A DNA stretch of 40,804 nucleotides, taken from assembly GCA_038842485.1 (NCBI GenBank), contig JAWBSP010000011.1, positions 1 through 40,804 on the forward strand, in the 5' to 3' direction. A program made the translations under genes and the position numbers. The notes below the pieces were generated by a model. That model made no database searches. It was not told the DNA's origin and was given only the letters and a program-made list of their open reading frames with translations. The DNA is from Candidatus Hadarchaeales archaeon (GTDB taxonomy: Archaea; Hadarchaeota; Hadarchaeia; Hadarchaeales; JAWBSP01). Shown one piece after another: positions 3,193 through 34,120 of the stretch (position 1 is its first letter; every line of letters begins with the position of its first letter).

Positions 3193-3791
3193 GGACGGTT
3201 GAACTTCTGGTTCCTCAGGACGTCTACCTCCAGAACGGCGTCCATGTGGGAACCAAGCAGCGCTCGGGGGACATGCGGCCCTACATCTTTAAGGTGAGGC
3301 AGGACGGGGTGGCCATCATAGATGTGAGGAAGACGGATGAGAAGCTGAGAGTGGCGAGCAAGTGGATAGCCAGGGAGGCGCCCGAGAGAACGCTCGTGGC
3401 TTCGGCCAGGCATCACGGTCAGCAACCGGTGGCGAAATTCGGGGAGATCACCGGCGTCAGGACCTCGCTAGGGAGGTTCATCCCGGGCACCCTTACCAAT
3501 CCACACCTTCCAACCTTCATGGAGCCCAGGCTTGTGATGGTCACGGATCCGGCCGCCGACGAGCAACTTCTGAACGAGGCCTCACAGGTGGGAATCCCCT
3601 GCATTGGAATCTGTGACACGGATAACTCCACCGCCAAGCTCGACCTGGTCATTCCCGCCAACAACCGGGGGAGGCGCTCGCTCGCCCTTCTGTACTGGAT
3701 TCTCGCCATGCAGGTTCTGAGGGAGCGCGGGACGCTGGCCTTGGATCAGCCCTTCCCTCACTCCATTGAAGATTTTGAAACCAAGACATGA
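3183..3791 (+). CDS. rps2: 30S ribosomal protein uS2
   Basis: GVHVGT, GRFIPGTLTNP, CDTDN and IPANNRG motifs; follows eno as in the conserved archaeal order. Confidence 0.97.
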   Translation: MELGTVELLVPQDVYLQNGVHVGTKQRSGDMRPYIFKVRQDGVAIIDVRKTDEKLRVASKWIAREAPERTLVASARHHGQQPVAKFGEITGVRTSLGRFIPGTLTNPHLPTFMEPRLVMVTDPAADEQLLNEASQVGIPCIGICDTDNSTAKLDLVIPANNRGRRSLALLYWILAMQVLRERGTLALDQPFPHSIEDFETKT

Positions 3792-4654
3792 GGCAACCGG
3801 CCGTCGCGGGGCAGTTCTACGAGGGAACGAAAGAGGGATTGCTCAAGCAGATTGAGTGGTGCTACAAGCATCAGATCGGGCCGCGGAAGCTTCCGGAGGT
3901 GAGGGAAGGCCCCCGTTCCCTTCTGGGCCTGGTTTCACCCCATGCGGGATACATGTACTCGGGCCCGGTTGCCGCCCACGGTTTTGTGGAGCTTGCCGCT
4001 GACGGAAGGCCGGATTCCTTCGTCATCCTCGGCCCCAACCATCACGGGCTTGGTTCGGGAGTCTCGCTCAGATCAGTCGGAAGGTGGAGGACCCCACTTG
4101 GCGAGGTTCTGATAGACACTTCTCTCGCAAAGGAGATCCTGAAGAACTCCGATCTCATCGACGACGAGGAGATGGCTCATCTATATGAGCACTCCATTGA
4201 GGTTCAACTCCCCTTCCTCCAGCACCTGTATGGGGAGATCAAGTTCGTCCCCATCTCGATGATGCTCCAGGACCTGAGGACAGACCTGGAAGTTGGCCGG
4301 GCTGTGGGGGAGGCCTGCCGCGGTAAGAACGTGGTGGTGATAGCCTCAACGGATTTCACCCATTACGAGCCCCACTCACAGGCCGTCAGAAGGGATCAAA
4401 TGGCGATCAAGCGAATCTTGGAGCTTGACGCTCGAGGGCTCGTTGAGACTGTTGAGAGGGAGGGACTGAGCATGTGCGGTTACGGACCCGTTGCTGCCAT
4501 GCTGGAGGCAACAAGCCTTATGGGGGCAAGAAAGGCAAAGCTCTTGAAGCATGCCACCTCTGGGGAGACCTCGGGCATGATGGGGGAAGTGGTGGGATAC
4601 GCCTCTATAGCGATTTACAAGCAAGCTTCCAGCGAGGAATTTTCTACTTTATAA
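3788..4654 (+). CDS. MEMO1 family / AmmeMemoRadiSam system protein B
   Basis: RQPAVAGQFY, PHAGYMYSG, GPNH, EHSIEVQLPFLQ, STDFTHY, MCGYG and VVGYAS motifs. Confidence 0.95.
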   Translation: MRQPAVAGQFYEGTKEGLLKQIEWCYKHQIGPRKLPEVREGPRSLLGLVSPHAGYMYSGPVAAHGFVELAADGRPDSFVILGPNHHGLGSGVSLRSVGRWRTPLGEVLIDTSLAKEILKNSDLIDDEEMAHLYEHSIEVQLPFLQHLYGEIKFVPISMMLQDLRTDLEVGRAVGEACRGKNVVVIASTDFTHYEPHSQAVRRDQMAIKRILELDARGLVETVEREGLSMCGYGPVAAMLEATSLMGARKAKLLKHATSGETSGMMGEVVGYASIAIYKQASSEEFSTL

Positions 4655-4655
4655 A
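4648..4655 (+). promoter_or_regulatory. Putative TATA box for the Cas2-like ORF / repeat array
   Basis: TTTATAAA about 25 nt upstream of the ATG at 4680, consistent with a leaderless archaeal transcript. Confidence 0.4.
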
Positions 4656-4679
4656 AGCAGCCATCCCAAATCCCTCGAA

Positions 4680-4888
4680 ATGAGAAACGTGCGAACGTTC
4701 GCAATTACGTGATTTATGACTTCAAAGGCAAGGCCCCGCGCAGCCTCTACTCCTTGCGTGAGAAGCTGGAATCGCTCGGGTTGGCGAGATGGATTCAGTA
4801 CAGTGTCGGGAGGTCGGGAAGTTGGAGGTGCCTTGGAAATAGCCAACTTCTGCGTCAGCGTGGGGCGAAAGCCTACCTCATGTGGTAA
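4680..4888 (+). pseudogene. Small Cas2/VapD-like (ferredoxin-fold) protein, apparently frameshifted
   Basis: Frame 4706-4888 reads YVIYDFKGKAPRSLYSLREKLESLGLARWIQYSV...LLRQRGAKAYLMW*, matching the Cas2-like pattern hhhYDh...G..xQxSV. The ATG at 4680 (MRNVRTFAI) is one frame off; GTG 4709 gives a 59-aa ORF. Confidence 0.45.
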
Positions 4889-5328
4889 AAGTTTGAGCTT
4901 GGGTAATTGCGAACGTTCGCATGTTCTGCCGGGTTTCACGATTTCCTCAGCTTGGAAGTGCGAACGTTCGCACCCTTTTGGCGACCCCGTTTTTGCCGAA
5001 AAATCTGGCTGGGGAGGGAGTAGGCATTTGCGAACGTTCGCACACTGTCTAGCTCAGCAGTTTGATTGAGGACTCGAGCTTTAAAAAGTGATCCATGTTG
5101 CGAACGTTCGCATCTTCCGACAGAACCCGAATGTTTTGGCTTGAGGAACTAGAGAGCCTCAGAGGTGGTTCCTATTGTGAACGTTCGCGTGTTTGTGAGT
5201 TCGAGAATCTCTCTGAAAGATTTCGGCCTCGAGTTGAGGTGTTGCGAACGTTCGCACCTCCAATGGGACCCACTGTTTTACAGGAAAAATCTAGGGTTGG
5301 TGAGGTAGGGGCATTGCGAACGTTCGCA
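4690..5328. repeat. Array of 14-bp palindromes TGCGAACGTTCGCA (8 copies)
   Basis: Perfect copies start at 4690, 4908, 4959, 5029, 5099, 5243 and 5315; a 2-mismatch copy (TGTGAACGTTCGCG) starts at 5176. Start-to-start spacings are 218, 51, 70, 70, 77, 67 and 72. Confidence 0.95.
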
Positions 5329-5591
5329 CTTTTCTTAAGTCCCGACCCTCCACCAAGGTTGTGTTAGAGTTTGGAGAGTGACCAAAAACTAGAGGTTGAT
5401 TGAGTCTTCTCGAGGGGAATTGCTCTCAAATCAAAATAGGAATGAGCAGACCAATTGTAGGAGCTTGGGAGCGTGATAACCAGTAAGTGCAGCCTTTCAG
5501 CTTGGGGAGAAAGGTTCCGCAAAGGCGTGAGTAAAGCCCATCGAAAATTGATGATACGGAGTTTTATTAGCAGTTGCGAAACCCCTAAAGA

Positions 5592-6662
5592 GTGGAGAGA
5601 AAAATTTCCAGAACTTTCGCCGGCTCTTGGCTTTTGGGAAGAATGCCCAAGGGCTGCAGTCTGTGCATTAGGGGCGCTAAACTCGTGCTCTTCGTAACCG
5701 GTCTCTGCAGGCGTGGGTGCTTTTACTGTCCGCTCTCCGACAAGCGGAGGGGGAAGGATGTGATTTATGCCAACGAGAGACCGGTGAGGCGGAAGGAGGA
5801 GATCTTGGAGGAGGCGAGATCCATGGGGGCCTTGGGAACTGGGATTACCGGTGGGGATCCGGCCCTCAGGTTTGAGCGAACCGAAGGCCTCATCCGCATG
5901 CTCAAGGCGAACTTCGGTTCCAAACACCACATCCACATGTATTGCATCTCTCTGACCCGCGGGCAGATCAGGAGGCTGAGGGAGGCGGGTGTTGATGAGC
6001 TGAGGTACCACACTTGGGACCCCTCGCAGGTGGAGCAGGCACTGGAGGAGAACGTGTTTGCGGGGGTGGAGCTGCCGAGTGTGCCTGGGAAGTTCAGGGA
6101 GCTCACCGATCTGCTTGCGGAACTGGATGAAATTGGATGCAGGTTCGTGAATCTGAACGAGTTGGAGTTTTCTGACACCAACCAGCGGGCACTCAGGGAA
6201 AGGGGTTTCGTGCTGAAGTCGGAGGAGTCCATGGCGGTGAGGGGAAGCCAGGAACTGGCCTTGAGGGTGCTGGGCTGGGCGAAGAGAAACACGAGGCTGA
6301 ACATCCACTACTGTCCGAGCTCCCTGAAGGACGGTGTGCAGCTTAGGAACAGGCTGCTCAGGAGGGCTAGAAGGACGGCCAAGCCCCACGAACTGATCAC
6401 CGAGGAGGGGACCCTCTGGCTTGGCATAGCCCACGGGATACCCAAGGAAAGGCTATGGGCGGAGAGGGATAGGCTGGTGAGGGAGGCTGGAATTCCCGCC
6501 CGCCTGGTTTATGTCAACGAGGAGAGGGGCAGGCTGGAGATGTCTCCCGAACTTGCGGAGAGGCTCTCCCGAAGGGTGAAGGGGATGAGGTTCGCCCTGG
6601 TGGAGGAGTATCCCACTTGGGATAGGCTCCAGACCCTTTTTCTCCCGCTGGAGGAGGGCTGA
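5592..6662 (+). CDS. Radical SAM protein (archaeal COG2108-like family)
   Basis: GCSLC, LFVTGLCRRGCFYCP (CxxxCxxC), GITGGDP, NLNELEFS and HYCPSSLKD motifs. Confidence 0.9.
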   Translation: MERKISRTFAGSWLLGRMPKGCSLCIRGAKLVLFVTGLCRRGCFYCPLSDKRRGKDVIYANERPVRRKEEILEEARSMGALGTGITGGDPALRFERTEGLIRMLKANFGSKHHIHMYCISLTRGQIRRLREAGVDELRYHTWDPSQVEQALEENVFAGVELPSVPGKFRELTDLLAELDEIGCRFVNLNELEFSDTNQRALRERGFVLKSEESMAVRGSQELALRVLGWAKRNTRLNIHYCPSSLKDGVQLRNRLLRRARRTAKPHELITEEGTLWLGIAHGIPKERLWAERDRLVREAGIPARLVYVNEERGRLEMSPELAERLSRRVKGMRFALVEEYPTWDRLQTLFLPLEEG

Positions 6663-8647: not shown

Positions 8648-9528
8648 TGGAGCTGGAGTTTTTGGTGGTGGGTCACGTCGCCATCGATGTGAATGTCTTT
8701 CCTTGGGGTGTGGTCGAGAATGTTTTGGGGGGAGCACCCACCTATAGCGGGTTCTTTCTGGCCGGTTTGGGGAAACGGGTAGGTATCCTGTCCAAGGTAG
8801 GAATAGATTTCACAGAGCTCTTCCCGCCTATTTTCGGAAAGTTCGGCCTGGACACGGAGGGGCTGATAGTGGCGGGGGAGAGGTCCACCACCTTCCAAAA
8901 CACCTACGACGAGCACGGCAACCGCGTGCAGGTCTGCAAGCACTTGGCTCCCCCTCTAACGGTGGGGGACATCCCCTCCTACTATACCGGGTTTGAGGGC
9001 GTGTACATCTCCCCGCTCGGTCAGGAGGTTTCACCCGAGCTGCTTGCCGAGCTCAGAAAGAGGGCCAGGGTCCTGATGATGGATCCTCAAGGACTTTTTA
9101 GGAGGATAGGCGCCGATGGCAGGGTCAGGCTAGAAAGTTTCGATCGGCTGGCAGATTATCTCAAGTATGTGGACATCGCGAAAGTGGGGAAGGATGAGTT
9201 GGCAGCCTTTCCCGGCAAATCGCCCGCACAGGTGGCAGAAGAACTCAGGGCGGCGGGGGCTTCCGTGGCCGTCGTCACTCAGGGTGAGGGGGGCTGCATC
9301 GTTTCGGACGGGAAGGAGATAAGGAAGTTTCCCGCTCTCCAGGTGGAGGTTAGGGACCACACTGGAGCGGGGGACGTTTTTGGGGCTGCCTTCCTCTGCA
9401 GGTATGTGGAGACCCATGACGTCGTCCAGTCCGCCAAATTCGCCAATGCCGCCGCAGGTCTCAAGATAAGGTATAGAGGCGCTGTTGGTTTCCCCTCACT
9501 TGAAGAGATTCTCCGAGCCATCCGCTGA
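8647..9528 (+). CDS. PfkB/ribokinase-family carbohydrate kinase (candidate myo-inositol kinase)
   Basis: GHVAID, LGG, DPQG and DHTGAGDVF motifs; translationally coupled to ino1. Confidence 0.85.
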   Translation: MELEFLVVGHVAIDVNVFPWGVVENVLGGAPTYSGFFLAGLGKRVGILSKVGIDFTELFPPIFGKFGLDTEGLIVAGERSTTFQNTYDEHGNRVQVCKHLAPPLTVGDIPSYYTGFEGVYISPLGQEVSPELLAELRKRARVLMMDPQGLFRRIGADGRVRLESFDRLADYLKYVDIAKVGKDELAAFPGKSPAQVAEELRAAGASVAVVTQGEGGCIVSDGKEIRKFPALQVEVRDHTGAGDVFGAAFLCRYVETHDVVQSAKFANAAAGLKIRYRGAVGFPSLEEILRAIR

Positions 9529-13405: not shown

Positions 13406-13423
13406 GTGGCGAACGTTCGCCAC
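13406..13423. repeat. Dispersed copy of the array palindrome (GTGGCGAACGTTCGCCAC, 18-bp perfect palindrome)
   Basis: Shares the 12-bp core GCGAACGTTCGC with the 4690-5328 array. Confidence 0.8.
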
Positions 13424-13556: not shown

Positions 13557-13631
13557 GGGCCCGTAGCTTAGCCAGGTTAGAGCGCTCGGCTGATAACCGG
13601 GAGGTCGAGGGTTCAAATCCCTCCGGGCCCA
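13557..13631 (+). tRNA. tRNA-Ile (GAT)
   Basis: Acceptor stem GGGCCCG/CGGGCCC plus discriminator A; anticodon arm CTCGG-CTGATAA-CCGGG; T-loop GTTCAAATC; no intron; CCA not fully encoded. Confidence 0.97.
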
Positions 13632-19938: not shown

Positions 19939-20267
19939 TGCACACGTGTGCAGTACCCAACCAAACCTTTGTCTTGGACTGGAACCGCTTCAGTCTGGCT
20001 TCAAAACAGATTTTTCCTCACGAGACGAACGAACCGTCAATCTTGGCAGCTTTCCGAACACGAGGCAGTGCACACGTGTGCAGTGACAGCACACGCGTCT
20101 CGGCAATCACCACGCACGCTAACTTGCAAGCCTCATGAGCTTCAAATGCTAGGTGTTTTTGGCAAGCAGGAAAGGACAGTAAACGTAAGATTTAAGATTT
20201 CTTCCATGTAACACGTGTTTCACCCACGACTTCCAATCTCTGTCTCCAGTGCAACACGTGTTTCACC
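19939..20267. repeat. Cluster of ACACGTGT-core palindromes
   Basis: TGCACACGTGTGCA at 19939 and 20069; AACACGTGTTTCACC at 20210 and 20253; degenerate GCACACGCGT near 20089. Confidence 0.85.
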
Positions 20268-22810: not shown

Positions 22811-23720
22811 GCTTCCAATAGGGTGATTTTAGATCCTCGAAGGCCGAGAGGGCTGCTACCGCTCCCTGTGAGCAGGCCACGACAATCTGCCTCGCCCCTC
22901 CCGTCACATCCCCTGCGGCGTAAACCCCAGGCACGCTGGTTCTCTGCGCAGCGTCCACGCTGATGTATCCATCCTCTCGGAGTCTCACCCCCAGTGGGAC
23001 CGCTAGGGAGGTGTTGGGGATTTCCCCCACCGCCACGAACACCCCCTCCACCGGAAGCTCCTCCCTCTCCCCAGATCGGGTGTTGAGCAACCTGAGGCCC
23101 TCCACCGAGTTCTTGCCCAGGATTCCCTCGACCACCCGGTTCAGCTTGAGGTTTACCCCCTCCAGCCTTCTCTGTAGGTGCTCTTCCGCCCTCAGTTCGC
23201 TCCTCCTGTGGATCAGGAAAACTTCGCAGCCGAGTTCCCGCAGATGGATGGCCTCCATGACGGCCGAGTTCCCTCCCCCCACCACCGCCACCCGCTTTCC
23301 CCTGAACAGCGGGCCGTCGCAGATGGCACAGTAGGAGAGCCCCCTACCCAGAAACTCCTCCTCCCGGGGCAGGCCCAGTTTTCTCCTAGAGGTGCCCGTG
23401 CAGAAGATTACAGCACTGGTTTGGTAGGAGTTCCGCCCAGTTCTTGCTTCGAAGCCTTGAGGGAGCCTCCTAACCTCGAGGACCTCTTCCCCCTCCCTTA
23501 CCGAGACATATTGCAGAGCGTGCTCCTTCAGCTTTTCGGCCAGCTCTTCGCCGGTTATCCTCTTCTCGCCAGGGAAGTTCTCAATTTGTGGGGCCTCCCG
23601 GAGCATGCCACCGGCCAGGCCCTTTTCCAGCACCAAGGCCCGTAGTCCCAGCCGCGATGCATAGATTCCTGCTGTGAGCCCAGCTGGTCCTCCCCCTATC
23701 ACGAGCAGTTCGAGGTCCAT
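22788..23720 (-). CDS. trxB: Thioredoxin reductase
   Basis: GGGPAGLTA, SYCAICDG, GGGNSA and AAGDV motifs. Confidence 0.95.
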   Translation of the reverse strand: MDLELLVIGGGPAGLTAGIYASRLGLRALVLEKGLAGGMLREAPQIENFPGEKRITGEELAEKLKEHALQYVSVREGEEVLEVRRLPQGFEARTGRNSYQTSAVIFCTGTSRRKLGLPREEEFLGRGLSYCAICDGPLFRGKRVAVVGGGNSAVMEAIHLRELGCEVFLIHRRSELRAEEHLQRRLEGVNLKLNRVVEGILGKNSVEGLRLLNTRSGEREELPVEGVFVAVGEIPNTSLAVPLGVRLREDGYISVDAAQRTSVPGVYAAGDVTGGARQIVVACSQGAVAALSAFEDLKSPYWKREAQKPS

Positions 23721-23763: not shown

Positions 23764-23889
23764 TGTTAGTGTAGTAACATAGGAGAGGGCAGGGGGTATC
23801 TGGTGATGTGTTACTATAGTAACATCAACATCAGCGGGGCATTCTGAATCGATTGATTTTGTTAGAAAAACAGTGTTACTATAGTAACA
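23764..23889. repeat. Three copies of the 16-bp palindrome TGTTACTATAGTAACA
   Basis: Perfect copies at 23809 and 23874, a 2-mismatch copy at 23764; located in the divergent trxB/pdxT gap. Confidence 0.88.
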
Positions 23890-23932
23890 TCGGAGGGGGC
23901 GTTGTTTAAGGGGATTTTTCCGTTCCATTTTG

Positions 23933-32850: not shown

Positions 32851-32987
32851 GCAGGATACCTCCTGGAATACTCGAATAATATATGAAGATATTCCAATAA
32901 AAAGCTTTCTGAGAGGGAAACTAAAGCGAGAAAAACACCTTGAAAAGGCCCTTGTTCCCCGAACCGACAAAAATGGAGGAAGAAGTT

Positions 32988-33068
32988 CACGGACGTTCGA
33001 TCTTCGGAATCCCCCTGTTTTTGTTTGAAAATCTGGCTTGAAGGTAGAGGGCATTGCGAACGTTCGCA
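32988..33068. repeat. Dispersed unit of the TGCGAACGTTCGCA array (degenerate palindrome, spacer, perfect palindrome)
   Basis: Perfect copy at 33055-33068 and degenerate core CGGACGTTCG at 32990-32999. The spacer shares CCC..TGTTTT..GAAAATCTGG..GGTAG..GGCAT with spacers of the main array. Confidence 0.85.
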
Positions 33069-33145: not shown

Positions 33146-34120
33146 ATGGGGTTGGAGAACTACCTCTCCAGAACCAACCTTCTGCTGAGGAGGAGCATGG
33201 GGAAGTTCTTGTCTGGCATCAAACCCATGGAATTGAGGGAATCCATGGCTCACCTTCTCATGGCGGGGGGAAAGAGACTCAGGCCCTGTCTTCTCCTGCT
33301 CTCCTGCGAGGCCGTGGGAGGAAGGATGGAAGATGCTAGGGAGGCAGCGGTGGCTGTCGAGTTCCTGCACACCTTCACTCTGATACATGATGACATCATG
33401 GACGGTTCCGCTAGGCGAAGGGGGGTTCCAACCGTTCATACCATCTGGGGAAGGGATTTGGCGATAACAGCCGGGGACGCCCTCTGTGCCAAGGCTTTCG
33501 AGGCTCTTGATTGCAACGCTAGCAGAGTTGGTTTGAGTGATGAGAGATTTTCAAATCTGCTTCACACCTTTGCGCGGGCGACCTTCGATGTATGTATGGG
33601 CCAAGCACTGGATCTTGTGCTGGGGAAAAAACCCATGAGGAAGAAGGATTATTTCGAGCTGGTTAGGCTTAAAACCGGTTCCCTTTTTAGGGCCTCAGCC
33701 AAGGCTGGTGCCATACTAGGCGGGGGAAAGATGGAGGAGGTTGAGGCTTTGGGGGAGTATGCTCTGTGGCTTGGGGTGGCATTTCAGATTCGGGACGACG
33801 TTTTGGATCTCGTGGGAGGGAAGGAATTTGGGAAGGAGAAGTGGCGGGACCTCAAAGAGGGGAAGATGACCCTTCCCATTCTCTTGGCCATTGAGTTAGG
33901 AGCCCGCGAGCTGACCAGCATGCTTAGAGGGGGGATAAGGGGGAATCAGATAGAGGAGGCGGTTCGAATGGTTGAGAGTACCGGGGCTATTGAGGCCGCG
34001 AGGAGGATCGCCTTGCAATTTTCGAGGAGGGCCGTTTCTTACCTTGGTAGAATCCGAGACTCCGAGGCCAAGCAGGCCCTGAAGGAGATGGCAACTTTTG
34101 TGGTTGAGCGGAGGGAGTAA
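33146..34120 (+). CDS. idsA: Polyprenyl (geranylgeranyl) diphosphate synthase
   Basis: GGKRLRP, FTLIHDDIMD..RRG, GQALD, KTG, FQIRDD and DLKEGK motifs. Confidence 0.95.
   Translation: MGLENYLSRTNLLLRRSMGKFLSGIKPMELRESMAHLLMAGGKRLRPCLLLLSCEAVGGRMEDAREAAVAVEFLHTFTLIHDDIMDGSARRRGVPTVHTIWGRDLAITAGDALCAKAFEALDCNASRVGLSDERFSNLLHTFARATFDVCMGQALDLVLGKKPMRKKDYFELVRLKTGSLFRASAKAGAILGGGKMEEVEALGEYALWLGVAFQIRDDVLDLVGGKEFGKEKWRDLKEGKMTLPILLAIELGARELTSMLRGGIRGNQIEEAVRMVESTGAIEAARRIALQFSRRAVSYLGRIRDSEAKQALKEMATFVVERRE

Follow-up and report, generated by a model that had tools for sequence, protein, structure and literature searches.

Plasmid centromeres such as sopC/SopB of F, parC/ParR of R1 and the omega system of pSM19035 are built of tandem palindrome units bound by a small dimeric protein that regulates its own gene, and in Sulfolobus the autoregulated factor Ss-LrpB has several regularly spaced palindromic boxes within its own control region. 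Hairpins of repetitive extragenic palindromic (REP) sequences carry GTAG or CGTC heads and number in the hundreds of copies, and the REP-associated tyrosine transposase (RAYT) is an HUH tyrosine transposase encoded by a single gene copy. Cas2 has so far been known as a structural subunit of the integrase of CRISPR systems, named for their clustered and regularly interspaced short palindromic repeats, and as kin of small nuclease toxins, and archaeal replication origins are defined by origin recognition box (ORB) repeats that flank an AT-rich unwinding stretch next to orc1/cdc6. The comparison made below with RAYT genes and their REP doublets forming hairpins (REPINs) follows the accessible parts of PMC3116915, 10.1101/2022.05.22.493013 and PMC3733652, the last of which describes REPs as 20–40-bp imperfect palindromes of high copy number, and otherwise general background. 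Here we describe an array of a 14-bp palindrome, TGCGAACGTTCGCA, in a 40,804-nt contig (JAWBSP010000011.1, assembly GCA_038842485.1) of a Candidatus Hadarchaeales archaeon; this whole contig is referred to as the window, and is contig C11 of a genome (G000) of 943 kb in 27 contigs that is 88.9% complete. Our analysis demonstrated that the array does not stand bare in intergenic DNA but is the 3' tail of a cassette whose gene has decayed, and that positions 4648–5328 hold one complete but dead copy of this Hadarchaeota-specific cassette.

A mismatch scan of the window found perfect copies of TGCGAACGTTCGCA starting at 4690, 4908, 4959, 5029, 5099, 5243 and 5315 and a single variant copy among them. 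The start-to-start intervals were 218, 51, 70, 70, 77, 67 and 72 bp, the spacers between the seven downstream copies measured 37, 56, 56, 63, 53 and 58 bp, and the gap between the flanking open reading frames (ORFs), a Memo-like gene (3788–4654) and a radical SAM gene (5592–6662), was 937 bp. An earlier reading of the DNA made from its letters without database searches (the sequence-only reading) had reported eight copies, seven of them perfect, with spacers of 37–63 bp in a gap of about 940 bp, and the scan bore out each of these figures. Together with a perfect copy at 33055 and a GGCGAACGTTCGCC site at 13408, the window held 10 matches to TGCGAACGTTCGCA, in comparison to a mean of 0.02 in dinucleotide shuffles, none of which (0/100) reached 10. 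The array escaped Tandem Repeats Finder, because between units only the 14-mer is well conserved. Hot-spring metagenome contigs from public runs of three studies covered much of the locus: a 758-nt contig (X1) spanned 4858–5615 with one difference, a 602-nt contig (X5) spanned 4870–5471 with two and a 494-nt contig (X6) spanned 5099–5592 with none, and a further metagenome contig (L130) bears the whole array locus. As independent assemblies cover the array with 0–2 differences, the assembly artefact that had been considered possible is excluded.

A BLAST comparison of the gap with the rest of the genome showed that sequences homologous to the interval bounded by palindromes 1 and 2 occur on contigs C9 and C23. 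On C23, six-frame reading and tblastn identified an intact ORF of 80 amino acids lying exactly between two such palindromes. The 218-bp interval of the window proved to be a frameshifted paralogue of it, which the sequence-only reading had not recognised, and further broken paralogues were found on C9, C2 and C21. A metagenome contig (L129), found by scanning metagenome contigs for three spaced palindrome copies, carries an intact 78-aa gene of the window type and nine palindromes at intervals of 224, 71, 72, 70, 73, 70, 71 and 61 bp. In alignment with this intact gene the window gene showed deletions of 4, 1, 1, 1 and 3 nt, and one of the 1-nt gaps (behind 4829) was polymorphic between strains represented by metagenome contigs, as expected of a pseudogene. 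Since the intact L129 copy has a tail as well, the long 3' tail belongs to the live cassette and not only to its relic. These comparisons showed the order of the cassette to be a TATA box, a start codon, palindrome 1 in the first codons, a gene of about 200 bp, palindrome 2 behind the stop codon and a tail of units of about 70 bp (Table 1).

Boxes similar to the TATA-like box of the window precede the ATG of the intact copies by 30–38 nt (L129, C23, L064 and L065). The usual archaeal distance from TATA box to start would place transcription initiation about at the cassette ATG, so that the box may be the promoter and palindrome 1 may occupy approximately positions +11 to +24. A pattern scan for promoters and terminators gave no more matches than shuffles; its consensus was of the bacterial type.

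Table 1. Features of the palindrome cassette and of related sites in the window.
Feature	Position	Strand	Evidence and remarks
TATA-like box TTTATAAAA	4648..4656	+	about 28 bp before ATG; overlaps stop codon of the Memo-like gene
Former start codon	4680..4682	+	out of frame through 4-nt deletion before palindrome 1; alignment with L129
Palindrome 1, perfect	4690..4703	.	within the opening codons of intact copies, where it reads ANVR
Decayed gene of the Cas2-like family	4691..4888	+	tblastn 54% identity to C23 paralogue; profile match E 4e-20
Palindrome 2, perfect	4908..4921	.	about 20 bp past former stop; 218 bp from palindrome 1, in comparison to exactly 224 bp in intact relatives
3' tail, six units	4922..5328	+	each a 37–63-bp spacer followed by a palindrome (4959, 5029, 5099, 5176 variant, 5243, 5315)
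Palindrome 4 of tail, the sole variant copy	5176..5189	.	TGTGAACGTTCGCG, two changes; letters identical in independent contig L130
GGCGAACGTTCGCC, 12-bp core in common with TGCGAACGTTCGCA	13408..13421	.	135 bp before tRNA gene 13557–13631
Two TGCACACGTGTGCA copies bracketing a decayed small-gene remnant	19939..20082	-	behind L12 ribosomal protein gene
Solo unit: degenerate palindrome, array-like spacer, perfect palindrome 33055–33068	32985..33068	+	78 bp before polyprenyl synthetase ORF at 33146

The association of gene and palindrome was surveyed in 27 members of the family, comprising 24 loci of relatives and this genome's three intact genes. In 26 of the 27, a 14-bp dyad in which no more than one pair was mismatched stood within about 200 bp, mostly in several copies, the only member without one being a broken copy (L028); the background of clustered dyads of this kind was 23 clusters in the 943 kb of the genome. 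Orthologues of the C23 gene had GGCGAACGTTCGCC on either side and window-type orthologues had TGCGAACGTTCGCA on either side; in each case the two palindromes stood exactly 224 bp apart. Other subfamilies carried dyads of their own, namely TACGTATATACGTA-like sites, G[TA]CGTATAT[AG]CG[AT]C, GTCTCATATGAGAC, TTCACAGGTGTGAA, TGCGC(A[CG]GT)GCGCA and GTAACACGTGTT[AT]C, and across genomes similar proteins were accompanied by similar half-sites (TACG.., G[TA]CGT.., GTCTC.., TTCAC.. and TGCGC..). All dyads had the 5-4-5 layout, most families with a centre that was itself symmetric (ACGT, TATA, ATAT or AATT). The survey thus showed a one-to-one pairing of protein subfamily and dyad. No neighbouring gene was common to the 27 loci.

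Pfam has no entry for the family and returned no hits for the window-type and contig C3-type proteins, NCBIfam returned nothing usable, PHROGs gave nothing below E 0.06, and no transposase family appeared in the scans of family proteins against these three collections. An exhaustive search of 1.8 billion representative proteins yielded only six hits, among which P0009 is a spurious repeat protein, and a profile search of 5.8 billion proteins yielded 46 matches, all unnamed or 'hypothetical', the named ones being Hadarchaeota or Hadesarchaea; the Protein Atlas offered unnamed clusters only (scores 0.83–0.87). Six-frame searches with a narrow profile detected the family in 25 of the order's 65 genomes, and those with a broad profile detected it in 36 of the phylum's 66. 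A literature search that left many subscription papers outside its coverage found no description of the Hadarchaeota cassette, in agreement with the sequence-only reading, which had proposed an undescribed repeat system; within that literature the protein family, too, has no published description.

Profile comparison points to Cas2. In hhalign the family matched 14 true Cas2 proteins of the same order with a probability of 96.1% (E 3.3e-9) over 52 columns, and in the profile search of the PDB Cas2 structures were the best natural hits (E 0.005–1.1). Pfam CRISPR_Cas2 gave sub-threshold matches in four of nine paralogues from relatives, the best at 23.7 bits against a cut-off of 23.8, and the same model (PF09827) weakly found some twenty family members in the genomes of the order, of which only three reached the cut-off. 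PADLOC reported Cas2 models only, in three of six proteins. Foldseek produced no match against the PDB at E 0.001 (best E 0.2), and its sub-significant hits were generic ferredoxin-like folds that included Cas2 and the RAM domains of Lrp. A homodimer prediction scored 0.04 (mark 0.42). The resemblance to Cas2 and VapD extends to size (65–80 aa in the family, about 70–100 aa in Cas2/VapD) and to the stretch from beta1 to alpha2, where the Y-D that closes strand 1 aligns, as does an IQxSV/F motif; the C-terminal third of Cas2, in contrast, has no match. An aspartate and a serine that are invariant in true Cas2 are each conserved at 90% or more in the family alignment, and from the hhalign register we take the near-invariant aspartate to be the counterpart of the catalytic aspartate of Cas2. 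The family is strongly basic whereas true Cas2 is acidic, with a median isoelectric point of 10.0 (18/19 proteins at 9 or above) in comparison to 5.4 (0/14). On this evidence the family is a divergent, basic homologue of Cas2 with differing properties.

Short palindromic repeats that stand in a cluster at a regular period of about 70 bp, with a cas2 homologue beside them, call to mind a degenerate or miniature CRISPR array, and repeated dyads in a long gap recall replication origins, yet both explanations are scarcely credible here. The repeat is 14 bp long and not about 23–50 bp; this is the entire conserved stretch of each unit, as over 29 nt the copies were only 62–76% identical to the reference copy. 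The apparent spacers all derive from a single unit and have since diverged; they show homology among themselves and with the spacers at a second locus. In the genome, at 88.9% completeness, Cas1 (PF01867) gave no matches, its control having been found in 7 of 14 known genomes, and canonical Cas2 (PF09827) gave none at E 0.01; the cassette genes of this genome are accompanied by neither Cas1 nor a CRISPR array, and unlike cas2 each is bracketed by its own 14-bp dyad. As for an origin, the gap contains no AT-rich stretch (lowest GC 0.44 in 100-bp bins) and both Orc1/Cdc6 genes lie on other contigs, C6 and C13, the only places with Cdc6_C matches. Several such arrays per genome also fit neither a CRISPR array nor an origin, and the sequence-only reading was right in holding the repeat to be neither CRISPR nor ORB.

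Conservation within the array was assessed against the second TGCGAACGTTCGCA array of the genome, which lies between a formyltransferase gene and an EF-1alpha gene on C9 (10314–10611) and has five copies at 70–72 bp. The C11 and C9 elements align colinearly over the pseudogene and five palindromes, and identity was 67/70 positions in the palindromes, 118/203 in the spacers and 124/153 in the pseudogene; against the overall identity of 68%, the conservation of the palindromes has a binomial P of 1e-8. The view that the palindrome is nearly invariant while the spacers drift was therefore upheld between paralogous arrays. The spacers are homologous to the C9 and L129 units and are diverged copies of one unit, indicating that the tail grew by tandem duplication. 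Selection on spacing, which had also been proposed, fared less well: within the window lineage the period is roughly kept, with 13 of 17 intervals at 70–73 bp, but arrays of other subfamilies are spaced at 27–112 bp, so that the period of about 70 bp is a trait of the lineage and not a rule.

Whether these palindromes act as DNA or as RNA bears on how the Cas2-like protein could meet them. In the accessible part of PMC10491678, relatives of Cas2 and VapD are reported as nucleases, and a transcript driven through the array by the cassette promoter could form hairpins with a 5-bp stem and a 4-nt loop that the protein binds or cuts, giving products of about 70 nt; a transcript processed at hairpins was among the options of the sequence-only reading. 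The array does lie 3' of the gene and on the same strand in the window, C9 and L129, the variant copy at 5176 retains pairing through two G-U pairs on the + strand, and some subfamilies have a non-symmetric centre (AGGT). In most families, however, the centre is self-complementary, which is not required of a loop, and symmetry running through the centre of the dyad is more readily reconciled with a dimer bound to duplex DNA than with a hairpin loop. A mismatched pair is retained throughout whole arrays (GTAAC/GAAAC, or T-T in GTCATACGTTTGAC), and in other subfamilies arrays lie upstream of the gene. RNAalifold on 10 aligned units predicted 13 pairs, none of which covaried (0/13) and all of which joined neighbouring palindromes. 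Rfam at gathering scores matched only the tRNA at 13557 in the window, with no family over the array. Processing at the RNA level is thus very improbable. A permissive Rfam match to the S15 leader over 4600–5650 (21 bits, gathering score 49) was taken as chance, and no C/D-box motifs were seen on reading the spacers.

The explanation we favour, to which we give an even chance of being correct, is that the palindromes are sites of a dimeric Cas2-like protein, one at the 5' end serving as an autorepression site and those at the 3' end as a tandem platform, and that in the window they are maintained by protein made elsewhere. A symmetric dimer would bind the 5-4-5 dyad on double-stranded DNA. The 5' site, just past a leaderless transcription start, would mediate autorepression, and the protein would be buffered or confined by the 3' sites, acting as a cooperative multi-site platform. 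The stronger conservation of the palindromes than of the spacers and the location of nearly all core sites of this genome outside long open frames also speak for such binding sites. The sites in the window could have outlived their dead gene through protein supplied in trans, for which the candidate supplier would be the intact C23 paralogue, possibly together with an L129-type copy outside the assembly; at the C23 locus the shared 12-bp core occurs both with T flanks and with G flanks. The putative operator role is suggested indirectly by the site at about +11 to +24, by the pairing of proteins with dyads and by the basic character of the proteins.

This arrangement recalls Ss-LrpB in its dyad of about 15 bp, its several phased copies and the placing of one site between TATA box and early transcribed stretch. 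It differs in that the cassette protein has no helix-turn-helix, most sites lie 3' of the gene, and sites persist where the gene is dead and, in relatives, stand inside unrelated genes. Plasmid centromeres likewise share with the cassette tandem units of tens of bp with one dyad each, a small basic protein encoded beside the array and sites that overlap the promoter region of the gene. Unlike those centromeres, the cassettes have no neighbouring partition NTPase of the ParA, ParM or TubZ type (27 loci; neighbours of the window and C9 elements), many arrays and specificities occur on one small chromosome, and the protein fold is another. The sequence-only reading had offered a binding platform for a dimeric protein, centromere-like or chromosome-organising; the platform is what we consider the best reading, while a centromere role found no support, conserved neighbours including no partition gene.

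Several observations weigh against autorepression and a platform. The near-invariant aspartate hints at catalysis rather than mere binding, and the pairing of genes and sites could partly reflect common descent of linked DNA. No cognate small gene was found in the genome for GTTACTATAGTAAC, which has 23 perfect copies, or for TACGAATATTCGTA. The 12-bp core, GCGAACGTTCGC, was detected in 30 of the phylum's 66 genomes and in 15 of 20 genera, in comparison to 1/66 for a control word, and comparison of the genome lists showed that 17 of the 30 core-holding genomes have no detectable gene of the subfamily; these 17 are 56–95% complete, and repeats are often unassembled. In relatives many core sites lie within coding genes (cofG, cofH and others) in any reading frame, and autoregulation does not explain them. 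Lastly, the elements in a convergent 3'-3' gap of the window (19939–20265), together with the several dead copies, look more selfish than regulatory.

The last of these points leads to an explanation of the REP/REPIN-RAYT type, possible although doubtful, in which a site-specific Cas2-derived nuclease or recombinase nicks or recombines DNA at its palindrome and so copies, deletes and multiplies units and cassette with no platform role for the cell. As in REP and bacterial interspersed mosaic element (BIME) systems, the repeats flanking the gene recur elsewhere between genes, both scattered and in clusters, each gene type has a repeat type of its own, and both persist vertically within a lineage. 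Each subfamily is bracketed by its own repeats just as RAYT genes are by REPs, so far as the accessible text of PMC3116915 describes them. Copies at unrelated loci in one genome (C11, C9, C23, C2 and C21) are mostly dead, and a solo unit stands at 32985–33068. Neither of the two same-genus genomes has the array at the orthologous position, gene order there differs too, and a contig of one public run joins 4620 to 5586, skipping 4621–5585. In other contigs the sequence beyond 4620 and 5586 is unlike that of the window, so that the gap and the last 34 nt of the Memo-like gene vary between strains or close relatives.

Turnover of a comparable kind was seen at syntenic loci of relatives, where a 224-bp cassette of palindrome and gene is present in L065 and absent from L063, the difference lying exactly between palindromes. 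The gene-less L063 form, compared with L065 and L064, retains the promoter, one palindrome, the spacer and the second palindrome. Some species have a palindrome in cofG in place of seven codons of the same total length, a patch with a different reading in species that lack the palindrome; no cofG or cofH gene was found in this genome. A multiplying enzyme would suit these exchanges and the near-invariant aspartate. Deletion between direct repeats of 14–21 bp, on the other hand, requires no dedicated enzyme, and the duplications in this genome go far back, at a spacer identity of 58%, young and near-identical copies being absent. Where RAYT is an HUH or Y1 (IS200-like) transposase, the cassette protein is Cas2-like, has no HUH/tyrosine transposase signature and no Pfam transposase match, and we know of no nuclease activity in its family. 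The cassette dyads are perfect and 14–16 bp long, in tens of copies and not hundreds, with 1–18 core sites per genome, and the gene occurs in several copies, many of them dead, in an archaeal host. Viral contigs held no protein relative and no array. The sequence-only reading had mentioned a REP/BIME-like element, and this idea remains the main rival to the palindromes being sites of a dimeric protein: it gains from a gene flanked by dispersed repeats and loses from low copy number and the missing HUH transposase.

Alternatively, the palindromes may be bound by an unrelated host factor with a genome-wide role in chromosome organisation or segregation, in the manner of parS, the gene being a bystander or itself regulated by that factor. 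Retention of the core in 15 of 20 genera, at 18 copies in this genome and 1–17 in the 29 other core-holding genomes, would agree with such a factor, as would the gene-less genomes and the sites inside conserved genes; coding-gene GCGAACGTTCGC sites are kept between species about 80% identical (L088 at 627 and 1670; L093, L099 and L107; L001, L123–L125 and L128). We consider it improbable nonetheless, since every protein subfamily has its own dyad and the proposal needs a second, co-diversifying family of binders for each dyad type, none of which is a conserved neighbour. No partition ATPase stands beside the arrays. The sites in this genome fall almost all within cassette copies, and 17 of the 18 core sites lie outside long open frames, in comparison to 9% of random places.

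A bolder proposal, which we regard as unlikely, is that a Cas2-derived, sequence-specific reader and perhaps cutter of short palindromes maintains or spreads clustered, regularly spaced repeats without Cas1, which would make it the archaeal analogue of REPIN-RAYT replicators with the Cas2 fold as its basis. If true, it would provide a natural cas2 homologue tied to palindromic arrays outside CRISPR and would bear on the origins of the partnership between Cas2 and repeats. If the palindromes are sites of the Cas2-like protein, as we favour, Cas2 would have a second life in palindrome-specific DNA binding with many paralogous specificities per phylum, and about 70 aa and a 5-4-5 dyad, with natural swaps between subfamilies, would amount to a compact recognition code. 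Such cassettes would also account for a good part of the long gaps between genes and of the repeat arrays in Hadarchaeota genomes of about 1 Mb, where the arrays break assemblies and mark differences in gene order between close relatives. They add a new case to the question of whether such repeats are regulators, chromosome-organising sites or persistent selfish replicators.

Beyond the cassette, the count of the 14-mer across the genome that the sequence-only reading had suggested gave 14 copies of TGCGAACGTTCGCA and 18 of its core. The genome also has the second array on C9 and at least five further palindrome families, none of which the sequence-only reading had seen. The genome contains 108 perfect 14-bp palindromes where about 58 are expected, and 60 of them come from six words, nearly all copies of which are clustered: GTTACTATAGTAAC (23), TGCGAACGTTCGCA (14), TGCACACGTGTGCA (10), TGCGCACGTGCGCA (5), GTAACACGTGTTAC (5) and GGCGAACGTTCGCC (3). 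In the convergent gap at 19939–20265 two other palindrome families stand side by side, the TGCACACGTGTGCA pair being followed by two copies of G[TC]AACACGTGTTTC (20208 and 20251); the likeness of the gene remnant between the TGCACACGTGTGCA copies to remnants on C6 and C12 was judged by reading translations. Near tRNA genes, the GGCGAACGTTCGCC site of the window is joined by L063, another Hadesarchaea record, whose gene-less palindrome pair likewise adjoins a tRNA gene. Spacer inversion between T-type and G-type cassettes reached a best z of 3.2 in one of 11 comparisons and was not counted as support.

Pairs of the same 12-mer, 54–67 bp apart, also occur in Chloroflexus, Massilia/Pseudoduganella and a few other bacteria (20 of 26 records; L060, L066–L068, L072, L074, L078, L081 and others); with no evident link to the archaeal family, they are probably an unrelated conserved operator pair. 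At the start of contig C19 (235–809) lies an array of six TACGAATATTCGTA-like dyads in which no intact small gene could be read. GTTACTATAGTAAC, the commonest 14-bp palindrome of the genome, occurs in the window at 23765–23888, between divergently oriented genes, one an ORF that ends at 23720 and the other pdxT-like at 23930, and its other sites include C4 and a seven-copy array on C18 (11710–12066). On C13 two GTTACTATAGTAAC arrays (3828–3993 and 8955–9181) lie about 2.2 kb and 1.5 kb either side of an Orc1/Cdc6 gene (Cdc6_C match at 6166–6432).

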